Positions 7,103-19,685 of a stretch of 64,000 nt of DNA are shown here, one piece after another. Made by a program: the position numbers and the translations under genes. Source of the DNA: an uncultured Chthonomonadaceae bacterium (lineage in GTDB: Bacteria; Armatimonadota; Chthonomonadetes; Chthonomonadales; Chthonomonadaceae); the NCBI GenBank assembly GCA_963817895.1, contig CAWFQB010000006.1, positions 1 through 64,000 on the forward strand, written 5' to 3'. The notes beneath the pieces were generated by a model. That model was not told where the DNA came from. It saw only the letters and a list, made by a program, of their open reading frames with translations, and searched no databases. Position 1 is the first letter of the stretch, and every line of letters begins with the position of its first letter.

Positions 7103-10100
7103 ATGAGTTCCCGACCATCCGAAGGCGCTCCATTTCCCGATGCTCGGCAGTGGAAACCGTGTTCCCACTGCGGCGCTCCGAATCCACCCCGGGCATCGGG
7201 CTGCGTACAATGCCGTCAGCCGTTTCCACATGCCCATGAAGCCGCCGCCGCAGAAATCGCGCACGTTGATTACCTGCTGCAACAACTGCCCGGCTGGCGA
7301 CAGCATGGTTTGCTGTCAGACAGCGCCCATACGCGCCTGCGCTCCGATTACCTTCATCTCCAGCAGCAGCTTGCCGATACCCTCTTTCCACAGCAGAGGA
7401 GCCAATCGAACGCGGCGCAGCCTGACGTTGTGGCTTCCGACACATTTGCTGCGGTGGATGGAGTTGCTCCCACCCCCCCGTTCGCCGCTCCGGACGCGCC
7501 GACGTTATGGGCGATGGACTTACCCGGCATCGCGCCCGGTTGGTCTGCCGCCCCTGCCGGGGCTTTGCCACAAACGTTACCCTTCGTTCCCTCCTCTGCT
7601 GCACAGCATCCGCCTGTCGGAAAGGGGCTGCGCCAATTCTTTCAGAAACACGCTTTGCAGGTTCTCTTCGCTCTGGCGACCGTTCTCGTTCTGGCGGCCC
7701 TGCGCGCGATGCTCGGCTGGACATGGATTGGCGATGTGGTGATGCGGCTGCTGCCCGTCGTTCCGCTCGGATTGACGGCGATGTTCTGGATGTTCGGGCA
7801 GAAAACGCGAGACGAAAACCCGTGGGCCGCCTTCGCGTATCATGGACTTGCCGCTGCCCTAAGCGCGTTCGACGTGATTGCCCTGAACAAATACTGGCTG
7901 CCCGCGCCACTGGCGGCCAAACCCGCTCTACTACTGGCCGCTCTCGTCGCCCTCGCCGTTTCGGGCGCGTTGTTCCGTCAGTGGCGCGAAGTCGCGTATT
8001 TGCACCTGTTCCAGGTTGCTGCCCTGACCACTGCTGTTCGCCCTCACGCAAATCCTGCGGTTCCATGCGTTGCCCGAAGACTTCCGGCTGACGCCCCTGT
8101 GGCTGTTCGGCGTGGCATTTCTCTCCTACGCGGCGCTCTGTCTGCTGATGGCGCGCTCGTATCCTGCCGACGTTGCCGCAACGGATACTCCCCCCATTCC
8201 TGCCTCGGCGGAACCGTCATGGCGGATGGCATGGACGTTCTGGGCGCATTTCAGCGTGATTGGAACCGTATTCCTGACAGCCATTCATCTTGCGCTGGAA
8301 CCTGCCGCCCCGAATGATTTTGCGTTGCTGTCTCTCCTGACCGGCTTGATCTATGTCAGCGGCGCGCAACTGCTTCAGGATGCCCGTATGGTTCGGGTTT
8401 CCACTGTATTTTTGATGGGAAGCGGCCTGCTCTGGCTTGACAGCCGCCACCCGGCACAATTGTGGGAGGGCGCCTGCGCGTTCCTGCTCACGTTTGGCGC
8501 CCTTGCCCTTCTCCTCGCCCGCTATAATCGGCAGCGGACGGACGGACACGGGGCAGGGGAGCAACTCGCAAAGGCGTATCTGGCAACAGGCAGGTGGAAC
8601 GTGTGGTTCGCCACTGTTTTGTCATGTCTCTATACGCTGTACGCATTTGGAGCTGTCGGCCAACAGCACTACCGCGACCATGGCCTTGTGGGAGGCGCGC
8701 TGATACTGGCGTGTGGCGGACTTTATTTTATTTTTGCGCGACAGGAGGAGAAACCCGCCCTTTTGTACGCGGCGTTTTTGACGTGGGCAGTGGGGCTTGG
8801 AAGCCTGCTGGTTGCTTTGTTCACGCCACACGGGTTGTATCCGCTCGTCCTGACGCTATACGGCGTTGGGCTTGCGCAGATTGCAGCCCGACTCTCGCGC
8901 GGGGCAGAGGGGACGCAGGCGACAGGAACAGATTGGAAGCCCCCTCTGCATAATAGCGGCATTGGGCTGACGACGGTGGGCGCGTTGCTTGCGATTGGGT
9001 TGCCGTTTAAGGATACGCTCACCACGTCCTGGCTTTGGACGACGGCGACCCTGACGCTTGCCCTTCTCCTTTACATCGGCCAGGCGCGTAAATCCGGGGC
9101 CGCCGGTTACGCATACGCGGCTCTGATTTGCGCGGCCGGTATCAGCGCCCTGCTGACGTGGCGCGTTTTGGTTCCGCAGTCGTTCCGCCTGGCCGACAGC
9201 CTGACCGTCTTCACATTTGTGGCTGCGGCGGCGTCCCTGATTCTGGCGCGGCGTGACCGCGCATCAAATACAGAAAAGACTCTGTGGCGCGAGTGCATCG
9301 CGCATGGGGCGCTTGTGACCGCATTGCTCTGCCTGGGGGACGGCGTATACGCTTTCTGCCTGGAGTCTGAAGCGCGGCGCTACGCCGTTTCCCTCCTGCC
9401 CTGCCTGGTTTCGAGTTTGCTGCTGTGCGGGACGCGCTATGTTGAAAAGCGGGACGCGAACAACGTCATACGACGCATCGCGCTGGGCTGCGCGGGCGTT
9501 GCCGCGGCAGTAGAGGTCGGGCTACTGTGCCATGTCTGGCAGGGGACGGACGGCGGATGGGAGCCGGCCTTTTTGCGGGCCTGGGGAACGGGGCTTGTCG
9601 CGTTTAGCTGGATGTGGAAGTTAGCCGCGCGACCGGCTCCCTGGTGGAAGGAACAGGAATGGTGGCCGCGTGAACTGATCTTCGCGGCGCTGACGACTGC
9701 GCTGCCAGGCCTGTTGCCGCTCACGATGGGAGCGGCAGAACCGCAAAGCGGGGGTGCGCTGCTGCTCTTCGAGACGGCTTTTGCCGCCACGTTCGCCCTG
9801 TTCGCGCTGGAAGCGGATCGAACGCGCAAGCCCGCTCTGGTAATATCTGGCGTACTGATCGTGGCGCTTGCCGCATTTGCAAATCGGGCGTTTGCGCCCA
9901 ATGGCGTCACGCTGACGCTTGCCGCGTATGGCATTGCATACGCGCTGTTGACATTCCGCTGCCGCGAAACGGCATTTGTGGCGGCCGCTTCCCTGACGCT
10001 TTCCGCCGCCTACACGCATCATCTGCTGTCGCTGACCACATGGTATACTCCCTCGTATATTCATTCGCCCACGCTGTTCTGGCCCAAATTCGCGTGTTAT

Positions 10101-10856
10101 ATGGCGCAGGCATCACTCCTGTGGCTGTGGCTCGGCTGGCAACTGCGCAGCCGGTTCAACCGCAGCGATCTGGCGCAGCCACTCCTCGCGTTGGCGGGCA
10201 GTCTGGCTATGGCAAGCGGAGTTATCGCCCTCCTGACCGTGCAAACGCCCGGCGAGGGGAAGTGGTCTATCCTGACGCTGGGATGGGCAGGCGCGGCCTG
10301 GTTCCTGCTGTGGATAATGGAACAGGGTGAGATTTGCCTGCATGTGGCGACATGGAATCTGATTATCGCGTGGAGCCTCATCCTGTATGATCGCCTGGGC
10401 GCAATCGGAGGCTTTCTGGATTTTTATCTGCTGCCGGTCGGCATTTACCTGCTGACTATCGGGTATTTGCACAGCCGACGTCAACAGCAACGGCAGGCGC
10501 GTTCGCTGTGGATAGCGGGTCTGTTGCTGCTGATTACGCCCGCCTTTCTCGCGTTCTGGAACCGCGACGGAGACATTCACGCGCTGCTGTTCCTCGGCGA
10601 GTGCCTGCTGTCGGCGTTGTGGGGTCTCTGGCAGCGTATCCGCGTCTTCGTTCTTATCGGAATGGGCTATATGGCTCTGTATGCCGCTTCCGTCATCATC
10701 GGGCATGTGCCGGATGTTTGGGGAACTATCGTGACTCTCGTTGTCGGCGTCACTTTGTTCATTATGGGCTTCTACATCCTCACGCATCGCGCCATGATGC
10801 AGCAGTGGGCTGCCGCGATTGAAAGGCAATGGCAAGGGTGGCAGGCGTGGCGGTGA
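7103..10856 (+). CDS. large polytopic membrane protein with N-terminal zinc ribbon (DUF2157-like architecture), split by a frameshift near 8030
   Basis: ORFs 7103..8317 and 8070..10856 join into continuous hydrophobic helices (..QVAALT / LFALTQILRFHALPE..); CSHC..CVQC at the N-terminus. Confidence 0.65.
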
Positions 10857-11104: not shown

Positions 11105-13223
11105 TTATGCCGGGACGAGAGCGAGTTCGGCTTCCACAGTTCCCACGGCTTCCACTTCCACTTTCGGGACGATTTCCGTGTAGGCCATGACCGCTAAAGT
11201 GGGCAGGGAACGCTCGATGAGACGCTTCACGGGCAGACGGATTTGACCGGAACACAGCAGCACGGGATTGTAGCCTTGATCGGCTGCCGCTTCCATCTGC
11301 TGCGACAGGCTGCGGATGAGCGATTGCGCCATCTGTGGGTCTATGGCGAGCATGTTGCCGGTTGGCGTGGCCTGTACCGCGCCCCGCATCTCCTGTTCCA
11401 GTCCGGGCGCGAGCGTGAGAACCCGAATCACGCCGTCGTCCTCCTGATACTGCTTGCAGATTTGCCGCGCCAGCGCCTGACGGCTGAACTCGCAAAGCGC
11501 GTCCGCGTCTTTGGTGCGCGGCGAGTAGTCGGCCAGCGTTTCCAGAATGGTCGCCAGATCGCGGACGCCGATACGCTCCGCCAGCAGGCTTTGCAGCACT
11601 TTTTGCACCTCGCCCAGCGTCATCAGGTTGGGCATCAACTCCTCCACTGCTGCCGCGTCCGTGTTCTTAACGTGGTCAATCAGTTTTTGGGTTTCCTGCC
11701 GCGTGAGCAGTTCTGCCGCGTGGCTTTTAATCACTTCCGTCAGGTGGGTTATCAGGACGGTGGCGGGGTCAACGGTGATATAGCCCGCCATTTCCGCCCG
11801 CTCTTTCAGGCTGCGCGCGATCCACTGCGCGGGCGTTCCCATTGCGGGTTCGATGGTGTCAACCCCCTCGAACCGCTGATAAACAATGCCGCCCTCCAAT
11901 GCCAGCACACAGTTCGGATACAGGTCGTGCGCGGCAACGGTCGCGCCTTTCAGTTTGATCTGATAATGGTTGGCGCGCAGTTGCAGGTTGTCGCGGATAC
12001 GCACGGAGGGCAGAATAATGCCCAGTTCCAGCGCGATCTGCTTGCGGACGCTGCCCACGCGCTCCGCTAGATCGCCGCCCTCGTCTGGTAGGGCAAGCGC
12101 GACAAGGTTACTCCCTAATTCCAGTTCGATGGTTTCTACGCCCAGATGCTCCATTACGCTTTCGGGTTCGGTCGGGGCGTCCGACACCTGACTGGCGGTA
12201 CGTTCGTCTTCCGTCTTCTGCTGTAGCGCGTCCGCTTTCTCTTTTTGAGTCAGGAACCACGCCGCCGTACCCACGCAGGCTGTCACGACCAGAATCTGCG
12301 GCTTGGGAAAACCGGGCAGCAGGAACATCAGCATCAGCAGGCCGGTCACAACGACAAGCGGGCGCGGCTTCAGGAACAACTGCGAAATAAATTCCTGTCC
12401 GAGCGGCTTTTTCTGAAGAGGCGCGCGTCACCATCAAACCCGTTGCTGTCGAAATCAGCAGCGCGGGAATCTGGCCTACCAAACCTTCGCCAATCGTGAG
12501 CAGGGTATATTTTTGCAGCACCTGCATAATATCGCCGCCCCGCGTCATGCCCATCACGAACCCGCCCACAATGTTGATGATGATAATTAGTACCGCTGCC
12601 ATAGCGTCGCCGCGCACAAATTTGCTGGAACCGTCCATCGCGCCGTAAAAGTCCGCTTCGGCCTCGATCTGCTTGCGCCGCGTTTTGGCCTGCTGTTCCG
12701 TAATCAGGCCGGCGTTCATGTCGGCGTCAATGGACATCTGTTTGCCCGGCATGGCGTCAAGGGTGAACCGCGCGCCCACTTCCGCCACGCGCCCCGCGCC
12801 GTTCGTGATAACGACAAAATTGACCACGACCACGATCAGAAACGCGATTATCCCCACGATGTAGTTGCCGCCGATAACGTACTTGCCAAAGGCTTCGATT
12901 ACGGCCCCCGCGTGTCCGTTTCCCAGGATCAGTTTGGTGGCGGCAACATTCAGGGACAGGCGGAACAGGGTCATAATGAGCAGCAGGGAGGGGAAAATGC
13001 TGAATTGCAGCGGCTCGGTGTTGTACAACGCGACAAGCAGAACAAGGATCGCGCCCGTGATGTTGAGAACGAGCATCGTGTCCAGAAAGAATTCCGGGAG
13101 CGGCACGACCAGCATCGCCACAATCAGAATCACCGTTCCGGCCAGCGCCATATCGCTATGCAGCATCAGGCGGTTCAGAAAGGAGTTGGGGGGTGTAGAC
13201 GCGGTTTGTGAAACGGCAGCCAT
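11105..13223 (-). CDS. flhA: flagellar export gate protein FlhA (extra A in the A5 run near 12410)
   Basis: FPSLLL, RVAEVGARFTLDAMPGKQMSIDAD, EADFYGAMDGSSKFVRGDA, TIGEGLVGQIPALL; cytoplasmic domain in ORF 11105..12379. Confidence 0.92.
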
Positions 13224-13253
13224 GCAGTCAAACTCCTGATAATACTACTCTGG

Positions 13254-13314
13254 CCCTCACCCGGGCGTCCACTTGTGGACAGCCCCTCTCTCGAAAAAGC
13301 CTGGGAGAGGGGCT
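13254..13314. repeat. CCCTCACCC...CCCCTCTC/GAGAGGGG hairpin repeat family B
   Basis: AGCCCCTCTC/GAGAGGGGCT stem; related copies at 40043-40091 and 63376-63418. Confidence 0.6.
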
Positions 13315-13465
13315 AATTCCGTAGTTGGGAAGGGGCATAAGGACAGCAGAATAGGGAATAAGTGGAAAGGTTGGGAAGCGGGCTAAAGCAGGCTTCTGTT
13401 GTCATTATCGGAAACTTGCGCCCGCAACCGCAGAAGATTTCAGGATTTCACTACGGACACATTTT

Positions 13466-13616
13466 TGCCGGACGTTGAAAACGCCCGTCTGAGCGGCGTT
13501 CCGCGTAGGGACATAACATGTTATGTCCTCCTGCGGACGCAAGACATCTTTAGAACTGCGTCCGCAGGACGCTTGCGCTTTTCTGCCGGGAAAGAGATTT
13601 AATCTGAAATCCCCGG
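13466..13616. repeat. REP/BIME-like hairpin cluster family C, copy 1
   Basis: TGCCGG..TTGAAAA..CCCG hairpin and GCGTCCGCAGGACGCTTGC shared with 29497-29614; nested GTAG-GGACATAACATGTTATGTCC palindrome. Confidence 0.6.
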
Positions 13617-13630
13617 AACCGTTTCACCGC

Positions 13631-14653
13631 CTACTTGATGTTGAGCTTTTCCAGCGCTTTGCGGATACCCGCTTCATCAAAGCCGACAGAGCGGAAGATT
13701 ATTTTGCCGCTGCCGTCCAGCACGTAGTTGGTGGGATAGGCTTGTACGCGGTACTGCAAAGCCGCATCGTAGTTATCGCCCATGCCCTTCATGCCGATCA
13801 GGAACGTGAAGTTGTTTGCCTTCACGTACTTTTTAATCACGTCCGCGCTATCCGTGCCGTTGAGGGCAATCAGTTCCAGTCCTTTGTCTTTGAGTTCGGT
13901 GTACAGCTTTTGCAGATGAGGAAACTCCTCACGGCAGGCGCCTCAATCATAGAACCAGAAGTTGACGAGAACCGCTTTCTTGCCTTTGAGCGCATCCTCG
14001 AGGGCGATTTTGCCCCCTGTCGGCGCGGACAGCGCGAACCGGGGAGCCGCGCTGCCGACCGGAAGCAGTTTCTTGTTGTCATTCTGCGGCTCGTCCAGGG
14101 CTGCGCCGGTGGGCAGCGCGTTGAGGATGGGCGCAGAAGGCAAGGCCGCATTTACCTTGACGTTCTTCAGCGCGGCATTCAGGGTGATCTTCCAATCGTC
14201 TTGCGTGAAGATTGTTTCCATGCGGGTTGCCAGTTTGCTCGGCGCGATATAAAGGCTCATCACATAGTCAAATGGTTCCCTGCCTTTCAATTGAACCACA
14301 TCGTACTCTACGCCGTCCACCGTCCGCTTACCAAGATACGCTGTTTCCGGCTTGTGTTCCATACCAAAGATGCCGCTGGAAGCCCCCCCAAAGAACATGC
14401 TGACAGGTGTAGCCCACATGACATCAATGGCATTCCCCTGCGGGTCAACAGCGGATTTTCGGTAGTGATACCTGGGCGGCAGCATGTACAGGTCAAAACC
14501 GTTAGCCGCAATCATTTTAACAAACTGCCCCTCCGAAAAGTCAGCGCGCGCCAGGTTCGGCTTTTTAAGTTTACCGTATTCACATACAAGACCTGATGCA
14601 ATCCTCTGCGCTTGTTTGCATTTAATTCTGCTTTCATCTGCGCGCGCAGGCAC
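13631..14653 (-). CDS. probable selenoprotein: LolA/DUF2092-like domain + TlpA/redoxin thioredoxin domain with UxxC active site; 5' end uncertain
   Basis: ORFs 13943..14653 and 13631..13840 are one frame; VNFWFYD-TGA-GACREEFPHL puts TGA (13943-13945) at the first Cys position of CxxC; cis-Pro motif QAYPTNYVLD follows. Confidence 0.8.
13911..13936 (-). promoter_or_regulatory. candidate bacterial SECIS hairpin
   Basis: mRNA after UGA: UGC-CG-UGAGGA-GUU-UCCUCA-UCU-GCA; apical G is 18 nt after UGA. Confidence 0.55.
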
Positions 14654-14723
14654 AAATAACAGTGTGCTGTGTGTGTTGAATTGCGTGTGCAGGCGTCAGA
14701 TGCGACAGATAGCAGTGTATGAT

Positions 14724-14779
14724 TTAACGTTAATGCAGTCTTGAATTCTGCTGTTGGTTGCAAAAGATTTAACGTTAAA
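14724..14779. promoter_or_regulatory. two LacI-type palindromic operators TTAACGTTAA
   Basis: perfect palindromes at 14724-14733 and 14769-14778 (45 bp apart) with a central CG, upstream of the LacI gene. Confidence 0.7.
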
Positions 14780-14794
14780 TAAGCCAAAAATCGC

Positions 14795-14822
14795 TTGATT
14801 TATCGCTAAACCCGTGTATAAT
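14795..14822 (+). promoter_or_regulatory. sigma70-type promoter of lacI
   Basis: TTGATT-16 bp-TATAAT, ending 12 nt before ATG 14835 (near-leaderless). Confidence 0.6.
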
Positions 14823-14834
14823 AGTCTTAACACC

Positions 14835-16001
14835 ATGCAACGAAGCAACGCCACAACTTTACAGGATATTGCCCGCGAAGTGGGCGTCAGCGCCATGACC
14901 GTATCCGTCGTGTTGCACGGTTCCCGCTCTTCGGCGCGGGTTTCAGATGCCACCCGGACACGGATTGTGGACGAGGCGAAACGGCTGCGCTACCGTCCCA
15001 ACGGAGTTGCGCGCGGACTGAACCGGCGGCGCATGGATACGCTTGGCGTGGTTTCCGTGATTGATGGCGGCGAAGTCAATCTCTATTTTCTGGAAGTCCT
15101 GAACGGCATTCTGGAGGGCGCGGCGGAACGGGGACACAACATCACCGTATTTTCCGTGCGCGACTGGCAGGCGGATGCCGCGAAAATTCAATCCTTTTGC
15201 GATGGGCGCGTGGACGGCATGATTTTTATCGCGCCGCATGGGGTTCCCGCTGACGTGATGGAGGCGATTTTGAGCCACACGCCCGTTGTCGCGCTTCACG
15301 CCAGCCAGAATATGCCGGGCGCGGTCAATCTGGATGTGGACAATGAGGCCGGGGCGTTTGTGGCCGTGACTCATCTGGCAGAACACGGACACCGGCGTAT
15401 CGCGCATTTTACGGGCGGCATGGATGTGCCGGGAGCGCGGCAGCGCCTTGCCGGGTATCGCCGCGCCCTGGATACCGCGCATATTCCTTGTGATGAGGAA
15501 CTGGTGCTGACGGGTAATTACAGCGCCACATCGGGCCGACAACGTATGGAGAAACTACTGGCGCAATGCCGCGTCGAATCCTTGCCGACCGCCCTGTTTT
15601 GCGCCAGTGACGCCATTGCCGCCGGGTGCATTGAGGCCCTGACAGCGCATGGCCTGCGCGCGCCGGACGATATTTCCGTTGTCGGTTTTGACGACACGCT
15701 GAACGCGCGCATGACCACTCCGCCCCTGACAACCGTATGCCAGCCGTTTCGCGGCATGGGACGGCGGGCCGTGGAACTGCTGCTGATACAGCTTGAGGAT
15801 GGCAGCCAGACTGTTTGCGCTGAAGACGCCATTCCTGCGGACGCGCTGCCGCAGAGAGTGGCCGAGGCCCGACAGAGCCTGGAGGTCAATATCAGCATGG
15901 AGGCCGCCGGGACTGTTTCCACCCTGTTTCATTCCGAGGTTTTTCCTCTGGAACTGGTTGTTCGCAAATCGGTCGGCCCGCCCCGTCCGAATGTTCGCTA
16001 A
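14835..16001 (+). CDS. LacI family transcriptional regulator
   Basis: TLQDIAREVGVSAMTVSVVL HTH, YRPNGVARGL hinge, DISVVGFDD, PPLTTV. Confidence 0.93.
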   Translation: MQRSNATTLQDIAREVGVSAMTVSVVLHGSRSSARVSDATRTRIVDEAKRLRYRPNGVARGLNRRRMDTLGVVSVIDGGEVNLYFLEVLNGILEGAAERGHNITVFSVRDWQADAAKIQSFCDGRVDGMIFIAPHGVPADVMEAILSHTPVVALHASQNMPGAVNLDVDNEAGAFVAVTHLAEHGHRRIAHFTGGMDVPGARQRLAGYRRALDTAHIPCDEELVLTGNYSATSGRQRMEKLLAQCRVESLPTALFCASDAIAAGCIEALTAHGLRAPDDISVVGFDDTLNARMTTPPLTTVCQPFRGMGRRAVELLLIQLEDGSQTVCAEDAIPADALPQRVAEARQSLEVNISMEAAGTVSTLFHSEVFPLELVVRKSVGPPRPNVR

Positions 16002-16123
16002 TCCGCCTGGCTGCGCCGGATCATTTGCGCAGACACTCGCATCGCATACATCAACGTTCGAGCTAAAACCGCAAACCACCTGTTGAGTCGATAGTTGAAA
16101 AACAAAATAAGGAAAAGTTAGAA

Positions 16124-16996
16124 ATGAAAATGCAACGCCGCGCCAACCTGACCGTGTCTGCCGGTCAACCAGTCAAAGGTTTTACCCTGATTGAACTGCT
16201 CGTCGTGATCGCCATTATCGCGATTCTCGCCGCGATCCTGTTCCCGGTCTTCGCGCAGGCGCGGGAAAAAGCCCGCCAGTCCTCCTGCCTTTCCAACGAA
16301 AAGCAGTTGTCGCTGGGCATCCTGCAATACGTGCAGGACTATGACGAAACCTTCCCGCTCGGCTTCGACCAGGCCAGTGGCTGGGTGGGCAGCGGCTGGC
16401 CCGTGCGCGTACAGCCGTACATCAAGAACCTGCAAGTCTTTCACTGTCCCGATGACAGCCTGAACGGTGGCGCTCCCGTTCCGCCCAACTATCCCTGGGA
16501 GGGTGTGTTCATCTCGTATGCCGCTAACGGCTACTATGGCAACTGGGCAGGCACTTCCTTTGCCGAACAGGGCGTCATGGCGACTTCCGGCTACGATCCG
16601 GGCTGGCTGTCTACGGCTTCCGCATCCGGCGGGCAGATTCAGCGGCCATCCGAATCCATTCTGCTGACCGAAAAGTTTGCGAAAGACGCGCAGGATGGCA
16701 ACGCTGCAACCCCCTCCTTCGGAACTTTTGACCAGGTTTCCGGCTTCGGCCCGCAGTGCGTGATTGCCGGCCCCTCCTATGGCGGCGGCTGGGGCGAGCA
16801 GAACATTCCCGACGGCACGCGGGTGGATTCCAATCTCTTCGGCCTGGGCAAGAACGGCGGCGTGTCCGTGCATCATACCGGCATGGCGAACTTCGCGTTC
16901 TGCGATGGACACGTCAAGGCGATGAAGCCCGCCAACACCAACCCCGACCCGACCAACCAGCCGCAGAACAACATGTGGAACACCAACCGCCCGTAG
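16124..16996 (+). CDS. prepilin-type N-terminal cleavage/methylation domain protein (DUF1559, C-terminal H-X9-DG)
   Basis: [56 protein letters not shown]. Confidence 0.92.
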
Positions 16997-17098
16997 GTAT
17001 TACGCGGTCTTCCTACTCCCCTTTCCAATGCCGGGAAGGGGAGGGCGCTCTTCAGCAAAAATGGAAGCGCGGTGAAGCACAACATAGAGAGAAAGAGC

Positions 17099-17329
17099 AT
17101 GTCTATGAAACGAACTGTAAAAACGCTGGCCGCGTATAGCCTTGTCGCAGGCATGGCATGTCTGTTGCTCGGCGGCTGCGGCGCGAAATCCGATAGCGCG
17201 AACAATGTGGACGAGCGTAAAATCTTCAGCGGCGACGCCAGCAAGATGCCCGAATCCGCGCGCCAGCAGATGGAAGCGGCTTCAGCCAAAGGCAAAGCCG
17301 GGGCGCAAACGCCCAAACCGCCTCAATAA
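17099..17329 (+). CDS. small lipoprotein
   Basis: signal peptide with lipobox LGGC; short polar mature part. Confidence 0.65.
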   Translation: MSMKRTVKTLAAYSLVAGMACLLLGGCGAKSDSANNVDERKIFSGDASKMPESARQQMEAASAKGKAGAQTPKPPQ

Positions 17330-17352
17330 TCGCGCTATTGTGCACCAAACAG

Positions 17353-17392
17353 AATGCCGCCTGCTTCCATGAAAGGGAGTGGGCGGCATTTT
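17353..17392 (+). terminator. intrinsic terminator or stabilising hairpin
   Basis: AATGCCGCC...GGCGGCATT stem followed by T run, between the lipoprotein and GH74. Confidence 0.55.
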
Positions 17393-17459
17393 GCTGAATG
17401 ATTCAGCGTATATCGCTTGTATGGTTCCCATATTTACGGTGAACGTCATGGAGGAACAA

Positions 17460-19685
17460 ATGAAGAAATCAGCAGCGTTGCTTGCGCCTCTGATACTGAG
17501 CGGGTTCTGTGTTTTGCCGGCCTGTGGTCGCGCAGGGGAAACGAAAACGGCAAAGGGCGTGGCTATCCTCCCCTACGTCTGGAAAAATGTAGAGATTGTG
17601 GGCGGCGGGTTTGTGTCGGGGATTGTGTTCAGTCCAAAACAGGCCAACGTGTTGTATGCGCGAACCGACATCGGAGGCGCGTATCGCTGGAACCTGGCGA
17701 CGCAACGCTGGACGCCGCTCATGGATTGGGTGGGGCAATCTGAAGGCAACCTGCTCGGCGTGGAAAGCATCGCGCCCGACCCCACAGACGCCAATCGCGT
17801 ATATGCCGCAGTGGGAACCTACACGCAATCGTGGGCGAGCAATGGCGCGATTTTGCGCTCTGCCAATCAGGGGCGTACATGGCAGCGTACCGACATGCCG
17901 TTCAAAATGGGCGGCAATGAGGACGGGCGTTCCATTGGCGAACGACTGGCGGTTGACCCCGGCAAAAACAGCGTTCTGTACTTCGGTTCCCGGCACGATG
18001 GGCTTTGGCGCAGCGCGGATTATGGCGCGACGTGGAGCAAAGTGGAAATTTTTCCGGTTGGGGGACGAACCAACGGCATCGGCATCGGCTTTATTGTTTT
18101 TGATGCGCGGAGCGCAGGCGCGGGGCAGGGTTCGCAAACCCTGTATGTCGGCGTGTCCGCTCCGGGCGTGAATCTGTACCGCAGCAGGGATGGCGGCAAA
18201 ACGTGGGAAGCGGTTCCCGGCCAGCCTTCGGGACTGCTGCCGCATCATGGCGTTCTGGACAAAACCGGAGCTTTGTTTCTCACTTATGGCAACGCTCCCG
18301 GCCCGAACAACATGACGGACGGAGCCGTGTGGAAACTGGACACGCAAACGGATACCTGGACGAACATCACGCCCGTAAAACCCGGCAACGGGGGAATGGG
18401 AACTTTCGGCTATGCGGGGCTTGCCCTCGACCCGCAGCATCCCGGAACCCTCATGGTCACGACAATGGACAAGTGGAGTACGGGCGACGATCTGTTCCGA
18501 AGCACGGACGGCGGCAAAACGTGGACGGCATTGAAAGCCCACTCCGAGCGCGACAGTTCCGCGTCGCCGTTTCTTAATTGGGATCGGGGCAAGGCGGATA
18601 TGGGACACTGGATGGGCGCGCTTGCTATTGACCCGTTCAAACCCGGCCATGTTCTGTACGGCACGGGCGCGACGATATGGGGCAGCGACGACGCGAATGT
18701 GGCGGACAAAGATCAGCCGACGCATTGGACGGTTCGTGCGCAGGGATTGGAAGAGACAGCGGTTATTGATTTAATCAGCCCGCCAACCGGCCCGCATTTA
18801 ATCAGCGGATTGGGCGACATCGGCGGGTTCCGGCACGATGATTTAACGGTTGCGCCCCGCAACGGCATCTGGACAAACCCCATTCTCAGCAACACGGACA
18901 GTCTGGACTACGCCGTTCAGAATCCCAATCTGATGGCGCGAGTCGGCAGGGGCGACCGGGGAACATCGGGCGCGTTTTCTACCGATGGCGCGGTAACATG
19001 GACGCCGTTCGCCGCCGCGCCGCCGCAAAGCCGGGGCGGAGGAGCGGTTGCGCTGTCGGCAGACGGGGTTACGCTGGTATGGACGCCGCAAAACGGACAG
19101 GCAAGCGTCTCGAAAGACCGGGGGGCGACATGGACGATTTGCGCCGGTCTGCCCGCCCGCGTCAACGCGGTTTCGGATCGCGTCAATCCCTCCCGATTTT
19201 ATGCCTGTGATACGGCAACCGGTAAATTCTACGCGAGCAGTGACGGCGGTATGACCTTCACTCCCAAAGCCGAAAACCTGCCCAAAGGCCGCAGCCGGAT
19301 TCGCTCCACATGGGGGAAGGAGGGCGATTTGTGGCTTGCCGCCTACGATAATGGCCTATATCACTCCACGGATGGCGGCGCGACCTTTGCCAAACTGCCG
19401 GACGCGCAAACGGGTGACGCCATCGGGTTCGGCAAGGCTGCGACGGGTCAAACCTACCCCGCGCTGTACCTGACCGGCAAAGTGGGTGACGTATCCGGCG
19501 TGTTCCGCTCGGACGACAGCGGCAAATCGTGGGCGCGTATCAACGACAATCAGCACCAGTACGGCTGGATAGGCCAGATCGTAACGGGCGACCCGCGCAT
19601 CTATGGTCGCGTGTATTTAGGCACAAACGGCAGGGGAATTCTCTACGCCGATCCCGTTACAGGTGGACAGACGGCGCGGAAGTAG
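17460..19685 (+). CDS. GH74 xyloglucanase-like glycoside hydrolase
   Basis: WKNVEIVGGGFVSGI, YARTDIGGAYRW, GGNEDGRSIGERL, SGLGDIGGF, many SxDGGxTW (BNR) repeats, GTNGRGI; GGAGG RBS. Confidence 0.9.
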   Translation: MKKSAALLAPLILSGFCVLPACGRAGETKTAKGVAILPYVWKNVEIVGGGFVSGIVFSPKQANVLYARTDIGGAYRWNLATQRWTPLMDWVGQSEGNLLGVESIAPDPTDANRVYAAVGTYTQSWASNGAILRSANQGRTWQRTDMPFKMGGNEDGRSIGERLAVDPGKNSVLYFGSRHDGLWRSADYGATWSKVEIFPVGGRTNGIGIGFIVFDARSAGAGQGSQTLYVGVSAPGVNLYRSRDGGKTWEAVPGQPSGLLPHHGVLDKTGALFLTYGNAPGPNNMTDGAVWKLDTQTDTWTNITPVKPGNGGMGTFGYAGLALDPQHPGTLMVTTMDKWSTGDDLFRSTDGGKTWTALKAHSERDSSASPFLNWDRGKADMGHWMGALAIDPFKPGHVLYGTGATIWGSDDANVADKDQPTHWTVRAQGLEETAVIDLISPPTGPHLISGLGDIGGFRHDDLTVAPRNGIWTNPILSNTDSLDYAVQNPNLMARVGRGDRGTSGAFSTDGAVTWTPFAAAPPQSRGGGAVALSADGVTLVWTPQNGQASVSKDRGATWTICAGLPARVNAVSDRVNPSRFYACDTATGKFYASSDGGMTFTPKAENLPKGRSRIRSTWGKEGDLWLAAYDNGLYHSTDGGATFAKLPDAQTGDAIGFGKAATGQTYPALYLTGKVGDVSGVFRSDDSGKSWARINDNQHQYGWIGQIVTGDPRIYGRVYLGTNGRGILYADPVTGGQTARK

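Follow-up and report, generated by a model that had tools for sequence, protein, structure and literature searches.

The in-frame TGA of a redoxin gene in the window (the whole stretch of 64,000 nucleotides that was analysed) is very likely a selenocysteine codon, as in the family of thioredoxin-type enzymes with a LolA-like front domain to which the gene would belong. Our preferred overall reading, to which we give a probability of roughly 0.6, is that this TGA encodes selenocysteine (Sec), that the family consists of disulfide reductases which are probably exported and whose front domain is predicted to be LolA-like, and that the window copy arose by duplication of a gene still intact on contig C11 (the C11 paralogue) and is decaying after a recent truncation at its 5' end. 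The features on which the argument rests are the following.

13631..14653, minus strand: read-through frame of 340 codons, with a GTG at 14653 that lacks a good SD sequence and the stop codon TAG at 13633-13631
13943..13945, minus strand: in-frame TGA, putative selenocysteine at the nucleophilic position of U-G-A-C, from translation and homologue alignment
13934..13936, minus strand: codon of the resolving Cys of the UxxC motif, from translation and ResA alignment
13916..13932, minus strand: bSECIS-type upper stem-loop of 7 bp with loop GUU and apical G at 13925, from folding and comparison
13634..14059, minus strand: ResA/TlpA-type redoxin domain, with PF00578 and PF08534 above cut-off
14080..14572, minus strand: retained part of the DUF2092/LolA-fold domain, from KLKKPN on, by DNA homology to C11
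14573..14653, minus strand: eroded 5' end, a signal-cleavage remnant (V)PARA-DE and then 20 codons, from C11 alignment and GC3
14724..14778, no strand: two TTAACGTTAA palindromes, at 14724-14733 and 14769-14778, by sequence inspection
14835..16001, plus strand: divergent LacI-family regulator, context only, from the ORF list and Pfam

An earlier note on this DNA had proposed a hidden selenoprotein whose frame is continuous even though the ORF list divides the gene into 13943..14653 (236 aa) and 13631..13840 (69 aa), with the TGA at the first Cys position of a thioredoxin motif. Both points hold: on the minus strand, which the note had left unstated, the translation from 14653 to 13631 is unbroken save for a single TGA (13945-13943) in VLVNFWFYD-*-GACREEFPHL, and in an alignment made with the C11 paralogue the TGA is in register with the first Cys of the ResA CxxC motif. 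Residues 199-329 of the window copy match the Pfam families AhpC-TSA (67.1 bits, cut-off 26) and Redoxin (56.8 bits, cut-off 26.6) and contain the UxxC motif, and this redoxin half is 92% identical to that of the C11 paralogue, with a dN/dS of 0.13.

The intact C11 paralogue (C11:128023-129192; L020:6024-7193, plus strand) combines a signal-peptide-like N-terminus, DUF2092 and Redoxin with the same U-G-A-C and the same hairpin. The source genome also carries a distant TGA paralogue (C3 447k-448.7k; L021), in which the LolA-like fusion reads U-I-C-C, as well as a paralogue with Cys on C4 (L022), and 5 of its 31 AhpC-TSA matches contain a TGA. Matches to the window protein were obtained in 54 of 61 related genomes, and the active-site codon of 29 loci fetched from these relatives is TGA in 16, Cys in 9 and another codon in 4, so that the TGA is not peculiar to the window gene and alternates with Cys. 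None of the outcomes that the earlier note had named as refuting it was observed. Among named records the close relatives belong to the Armatimonadota, with the nearest in the Chthonomonadaceae. In a sample of 251 Armatimonadota genomes, 26 matched at E<=1e-30, and one TGA lies somewhere within the match in 15 of 36 match rows (10 genomes). Among 120 listed hits in the protein database, 60 (the C11 copy itself included) end just before the Sec site, 54 have the full CxxC and 6 have other residues; among the best 150 of a profile search the corresponding numbers are 54, 83 and 13, a count that favours proteins ending at the site because the profile included truncated members. The next codon was seen for a minority of the database proteins that end at the site. 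The cut proteins are labelled 'outer membrane lipoprotein-sorting protein' or 'DUF2092 domain-containing protein'. A quick tree was built from 32 rows, of which 22 have Sec, 9 Cys and 1 another residue, after a filter had removed 20 sites; it requires 7 Sec/Cys changes, of which at least 4 are forced by well-supported branches, and Sec and Cys do not cluster on this tree, as 132 of 500 shuffles were as low as 7 changes.

If the TGA were a true stop or a nonsense mutation, the gene would give a LolA-only protein, and this is how the databases annotate it; the frameshifted selB of the source assembly would agree. However, the same TGA is common to 27 distinct sites in many genera, the conserved redoxin continues beyond it, and it is followed by a covarying hairpin that is missing from the Cys forms. 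The comparative data already contradict a stop, to which we give next to no weight, and we regard Sec coding in the LolA-redoxin fusion family as nearly certain.

The source genome holds two further TGA redoxins, a short membrane-anchored TlpA with W-U-G-S-C (C3:2202-2570) and a beta-propeller-like fusion with W-U-G-P-C (C5:542468-542830); a hairpin-like sequence follows the UGA in both of them and in C3:447k-448.7k. Three single homologues deserve mention. The copy of the genus relative G002 (L024) is frameshifted and reads U-A-A-C-R-K, and may be either a second decaying copy or an assembly error, rpoB also being shattered in G002. The database homologue P0021 has W at the Sec position (W-G-A-C), which may reflect either a change to TGG or translation of TGA as Trp. 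On a 4 kb contig in a record labelled Actinomycetota, L076 has the TGA and an intact hairpin, and represents either transfer or mis-binning.

PMC13188914 gives the bSECIS consensus as a loop of 3-9 nt, a stem of 4-16 bp, a G in loop positions 1-2, a spacing of 16-37 nt and an MFE <= -7.5. The window hairpin GUGAGGA-GUU-UCCUCAU agrees with these rules (spacing 17, 7 bp, loop GUU, -12.2 kcal/mol), its predicted lower stem reaches to about 13911-13936, and its apical G is the 18th nucleotide past the UGA, just as the earlier note had described. By itself, the hairpin is not more stable than shuffled sequences (z -0.57 to -1.89 in four windows), and stability alone was dropped as evidence for a SECIS element because it was not significant. 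It is the contrast in pairing between TGA and Cys sites that lifts the hairpin beyond chance. In our own implementation of the rules, with duplicates removed, 26 of 27 TGA sites pass, the single failure being the frameshifted G002 copy. Cys sites pass in 2 of 20 cases in the close set, which consists mostly of fused forms, and in 8 of 56 cases in the distant one. In ungapped 42-nt alignments, the 7-bp stem is paired in 96.4% of 196 cells (28 TGA sites) and in 47.6% of 147 cells (21 Cys sites), and slid controls for the TGA sites gave 38-69%. Stem covariation reaches 0.212 at the TGA sites, with none of 500 shuffles as high and with two-sided changes in 3 pairs (10 cells), compared with 0.075 at the Cys sites, where 141 of 500 shuffles were as high. 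Because the stem came from folding the window copy itself and the aligned sequences are related, the shuffles overstate the covariation, and the Cys-site contrast seems the stronger control. At six sites C-G has replaced an A-U pair, one arm of the stem having changed a Glu codon to Ala and the opposite arm a Pro codon synonymously.

An ab initio scan of the genome for UGA, hairpin and motif was set aside as mostly noise (326 of 46,633 TGAs passed), as was a short-motif regex scan, and an Rfam search over 13200-14900 returned two matches, both far under the gathering score.

The machinery for Sec is present in the source genome (G000, 81% complete), where selA and selD are above cut-off, selD with a TGA of its own in GAG-U-AGK, and a tRNA-Sec with anticodon UCA was found. 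The selB gene is there over its whole length in several reading frames, and it is intact in both genus relatives. Read by eye against the intact gene of a relative, its breaks are mostly one-base indels, and as neighbouring genes on the same contig are split likewise, they are probably patchy assembly indels. A valS-family synthetase gene and flhA are also split in this assembly, and rpoB and valS are whole. Among the 16 genomes with active-site TGA loci, 15 have selA and 14 have tRNA-Sec, although the selA co-occurrence is weak evidence given the high background of 46 in 60 relatives. In G050 (92% complete), which has a TGA copy and selB, we did not find selA, selD or tRNA-Sec. The same three were not found in G008 and G029, which have a full-length selB-like gene under cut-off and Cys in their fusion copies; a recent loss of the Sec trait is possible in these two. 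At C11:90528-90599 there is also a tRNA with a CUA anticodon that ARAGORN calls tRNA-Pyl, and as no PylS scores above cut-off in the genus, it is probably spurious or suppressor-like.

The earlier note had read the gene as a LolA-like domain fused to a TlpA-type redoxin. For the redoxin this holds in the window copy itself, and for the LolA fold it holds only by way of the intact C11 paralogue, in which DUF2092 (PF09865) scores 35.4 bits (cut-off 21.2) next to Redoxin; for the truncated window copy, DUF2092 was listed neither at E<=0.1 nor in the genome-wide search. The structure predicted for the C11 paralogue from a 51-row alignment (pLDDT 91.4, pTM 0.82) matches DsbE/ResA over residues 245-389 (Z 20.7, rmsd 1.8, 138 aligned) and LolA-family chains over residues 26-234 (Z 16.4, rmsd 3.2, 178 aligned), and Foldseek relates the front domain to P. 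aeruginosa LolA with an E of 6e-11. The single-sequence fold of the window copy was uninformative (pLDDT 35.8), and the LolA-like domain has no PDB sequence match at E<=10. PMC4520260 places DUF2092 in the LolA superfamily and describes its hydrophobic cavity as conserved in part. The C11 model shows an open barrel with a helical lid. It differs from LolA proper in sequence (7-19% identity; TIGR00547 21.9, cut-off 112) and in its fusion to a redoxin, so that the front domain as modelled has the LolA fold but is not LolA proper. The LolA-like fold is expanded in the source genome, where DUF2092 is matched ten times, in several cases by LolA-like proteins that stand alone and are secreted.

As to what is new, UxxC redoxin selenoproteins as such are known. 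Table 1 of PMC13188914 (2026) gives 119 prokaryotic selenoprotein families, including UxxC Redoxin, Prx-like and thiol-disulfide isomerase-like ones, and the Prx-like selenoprotein family already stands in PMC1794560. The UxxC Redoxin selenoproteins of PMC13188914 resemble the window copy in their Pfam domains, in the UxxC motif and in a coding-region bSECIS at 16-37 nt, and what the fusion family adds is a signal peptide and the DUF2092/LolA-fold domain, although representatives in that catalogue could themselves be fused. 'LolA' and 'DUF2092' occur 0 times in the accessible part of that paper, and the fusion is absent from its list of 119 families. We also found no description of the fusion in listings of the open literature on Armatimonad selenoproteins, DUF2092/LolA-thioredoxin fusions, LolA-like paralogues or selenocysteine in Chthonomonas. 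No NCBIfam model scores above cut-off for the window copy or the C11 paralogue. The equivalogs ResA (79.7/170), DsbE (46.8/123) and TlpA (31.2/230) are under cut-off for the window copy, and the weak cross-hits to other thioredoxin-fold selenoproteins, which have different motifs, are far under it: NF041054 (WAxxUGC_long) 28.1/300, NF053656 (TUGYCR) 19.7/100 and NF040769 (SelL-related) 15.4/120. The fusion is common in an understudied phylum and systematically mis-annotated, half of the nearest listed database proteins being cut at the UGA. It provides DUF2092 with a partner activity that can be tested and, with its 4 or more switches, a natural set of Sec/Cys pairs.

The closest structural relatives of the C11 redoxin domain are the extracytoplasmic thiol-disulfide reductases Bacillus ResA, DsbE(CcmG) and TlpA (PDB 1st9, 4nmu, 3gl3), which have the same fold (Z 19-21, rmsd about 2 A) and have in common with the C11 paralogue the register of the CxxC, a Glu three residues past the second Cys and the Pro of the PT motif. 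They differ from the fusion family, which has Sec for the first Cys and, instead of their membrane anchor, a cleavable signal and a LolA-like domain; a cytochrome c maturation context was not seen in the loci listed. Enzymes of the ResA/TlpA type attack a disulfide with the first Cys, resolve the intermediate with the second and are recharged by a DsbD/CcdA-type protein. By analogy, in an intact member of the family, SelB-GTP-Sec-tRNA would bind the hairpin 18 nt past the UGA and insert Sec, and the signal peptide would be cleaved at the A-x-A/D-E motif that is seen in the C11 paralogue and its relatives, bringing the protein to the periplasm. The selenolate would then attack a substrate disulfide, the Cys three residues on would resolve the adduct to a selenenylsulfide, and a membrane protein of the DsbD/CcdA type would re-reduce it. 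In the model, the LolA-fold barrel would most likely grip an acyl chain or hydrophobic segment of an envelope client near the Sec. Lgt is present in the source genome, and a preprint lists the Armatimonadetes among the diderm phyla (10.1101/2021.05.31.446380). Client and electron donor are putative, since no LolCE scores above cut-off in this 81% complete genome (best 58.2 versus 362, TIGR02212) and DsbD/CcdA gives a weak, split match.

An alternative, compatible with the truncation of the window copy, is that the LolA-like cavity holds lipid hydroperoxides, on which the family would act as a Sec-dependent peroxidase or reductase. The fusion of a hydrophobic-cavity fold to a Sec redoxin would suit such a role (for the DUF2092 cavity, see PMC4520260), and AhpC/TSA is the best Pfam match of the window copy. 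However, the nearest structures and sequences are the ResA/DsbE disulfide reductases, whose ResA-like Glu and Pro are kept in the C11 paralogue, GSHPx scores 15.8, far under its cut-off of 27, and the motif is UxxC and not the TxxU of Prx. We regard the lipid-hydroperoxide role as unlikely and, arguing from the ResA-type relatives, hold with good confidence that the family would reduce disulfides rather than peroxides. A wider proposal is tentative and rather doubtful: the Armatimonadota may have a large unannotated envelope selenoenzyme family, which gene callers enter under the name 'lipoprotein-sorting protein' alone. Its LolA-like pocket would take up clients with a lipid anchor (lipoproteins, lipopeptides or oxidised lipids) and bring them to the Sec redoxin, so coupling anchor recognition to redox repair, and Sec and Cys would have been swapped repeatedly.

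Four loci, L022 (G000:C4), L037, L041 and L042, form a separate LolA-redoxin subclade with Sec in L037 and Cys in the other three. Their fusion genes lie just upstream of a conserved gene for a large membrane protein, and an FtsX/MacB-like permease gene precedes the fusion in L022, L037 and probably L041, a neighbourhood that is a possible lead to the client of the family.

The earlier note had cautioned that a clear start and signal peptide are missing and that the 5' end may be eroded, and this caveat was right. DNA homology to the C11 paralogue starts only at 14572. Upstream of this point, (V)PARADE matches the family consensus PARADEK at the signal-cleavage site, after which the window copy has 20 codons as compared with 45 in C11. 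It has no counterpart to helix 26-43 and strands 46-58 of the C11 model, nor to most of 64-76. In all 16 other TGA genes listed, the signal peptide is there and nothing of the segment before KPN is missing. The frame is closed upstream by a TGA 14 codons above GTG 14653, and no hydrophobic signal stretch as in C11 and its relatives was seen by eye upstream in the three frames. GC3 is 0.33 in the first 27 codons, lower than in the LolA body (0.65), the redoxin (0.71) and the neighbouring genes (0.67-0.74). In the retained LolA part, which is 43-58% identical to C11, 5 of 24 family-conserved residues are changed in the window copy and none in C11. The LolA half has accumulated 31 amino-acid changes in the window lineage versus 15 in that of C11 (p 0.026; 29 versus 17 with a second outgroup, p 0.10), with branch lengths of 0.33 and 0.13, and it thus seems to evolve about twice as fast; the redoxin half has no excess (5 versus 5; 7 versus 2). 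In run X3, one contig matches on both sides, over the redoxin as far as 14078 and over the operator/lacI region starting at 14693; the two matches lie 857 letters apart on it, against 614 in the window, and the difference of 243 nt would fit the loss of the leader, the start, the signal peptide and helix 1. We infer that the window copy has lost about 240 nt, and with them its leader and start codon, the greater part of the signal peptide, helix 1 and the first strands; it is therefore probably not made or not exported.

The 5' damage could come from the assembly, with a full-length second paralogue as the living gene: many indels are seen in selB and its neighbours, the valS-family synthetase gene and flhA, and the related X3 contig has an interval of intact length at the same locus. 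However, the visible errors are mostly indels of 1-2 bases, whereas about 240 nt are missing here in at least two places; a contig from an independent short-read run (X2) aligns gap-free to 14642-15000, with 7 differences; and conserved LolA residues are substituted further inside too. Among the run contigs, none covers 14260-14595 and none bridges 14572-14642. We consider an artefact improbable. It is slightly less improbable that the copy is still translated, from GTG 14653 or an internal ATG such as that at 14515, to give a cytoplasmic selenoredoxin that lacks a signal and in which the LolA half is leaving selection. Such a protein would account for the open frame of 340 codons, the intact SECIS and a redoxin half under purifying selection without rate excess beside an accelerated LolA half, and ATG 14515 has a 4/6 SD-like match, though far upstream. 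Yet none of the 13 in-frame starts has more than a 4/6 SD match, a simple scan gave no promoter-like site on the minus strand, the single-sequence fold tells nothing, and a recent truncation would yield the same pattern. The open frame, the intact SECIS, the normal GC3 of the body and the low dN/dS of the redoxin half do speak against a pseudogene, and they imply that the damage is recent or that the redoxin is still made from an unusual start. On balance, the window locus is probably a young pseudogene, a decaying duplicate of the intact C11 gene, and we think it fairly probable that its product is non-functional or non-exported. A Sec-containing envelope redoxin, as the earlier note had put it, therefore fits the family and the C11 paralogue, while the window copy, which has neither start nor signal peptide, probably gives no expressed envelope protein. 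The copy worth study is the intact C11 paralogue and probably not the window locus.

Gene conversion between the redoxin halves of the two copies, suggested by a dS of 0.31 versus 1.1-1.8, was also considered and dropped, as the contrast at fourfold sites (20/44 versus 14/59, p 0.03) is the same or stronger in other pairs among 77.

The two TTAACGTTAA palindromes sit about where the start of an intact signal peptide would fall and are likely operators of the divergent LacI-family gene. From 14835 to 19685, that gene is followed by a DUF1559 prepilin-like gene and a BNR-repeat glycosidase, which we take to be GH74-like, and the region probably serves the use of xyloglucan. G002 has a similar upstream stretch directly before the prepilin-like gene, beside a GH31-like gene. 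In G001 and G002, flhA, lacI and the prepilin-like gene are at separate loci, and G001 gave no close copy of the fusion. No conserved gene neighbourhood was seen for the window/C11 clade in the loci listed; linkage to LacI occurs in none of the other 112 loci, save for one distant clostridial locus with an unrelated lacI-family gene, and in one run contig. A metagenome scan gave 3 loci, none of them shown to be syntenic. None of the sequencing runs listed is of RNA, and as all their shares are small (0.14 at most), we claim no habitat. On the other side of the window copy, flhA (FHIPEP; 11105-13223) is in two frames, probably through an assembly indel, and is intact in G001 and G002; the ORF pair at 7103-10856 looks similarly split. 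The intergenic stretches 13244-13330 and 13470-13620 contain REP-like repeats whose arms are inverted; they are found again on many of the genome's contigs and in run contigs. Elsewhere in the source genome, G000:C4:227906-230044 holds a dense array of 16 tRNA genes on one strand, as in mobile elements.
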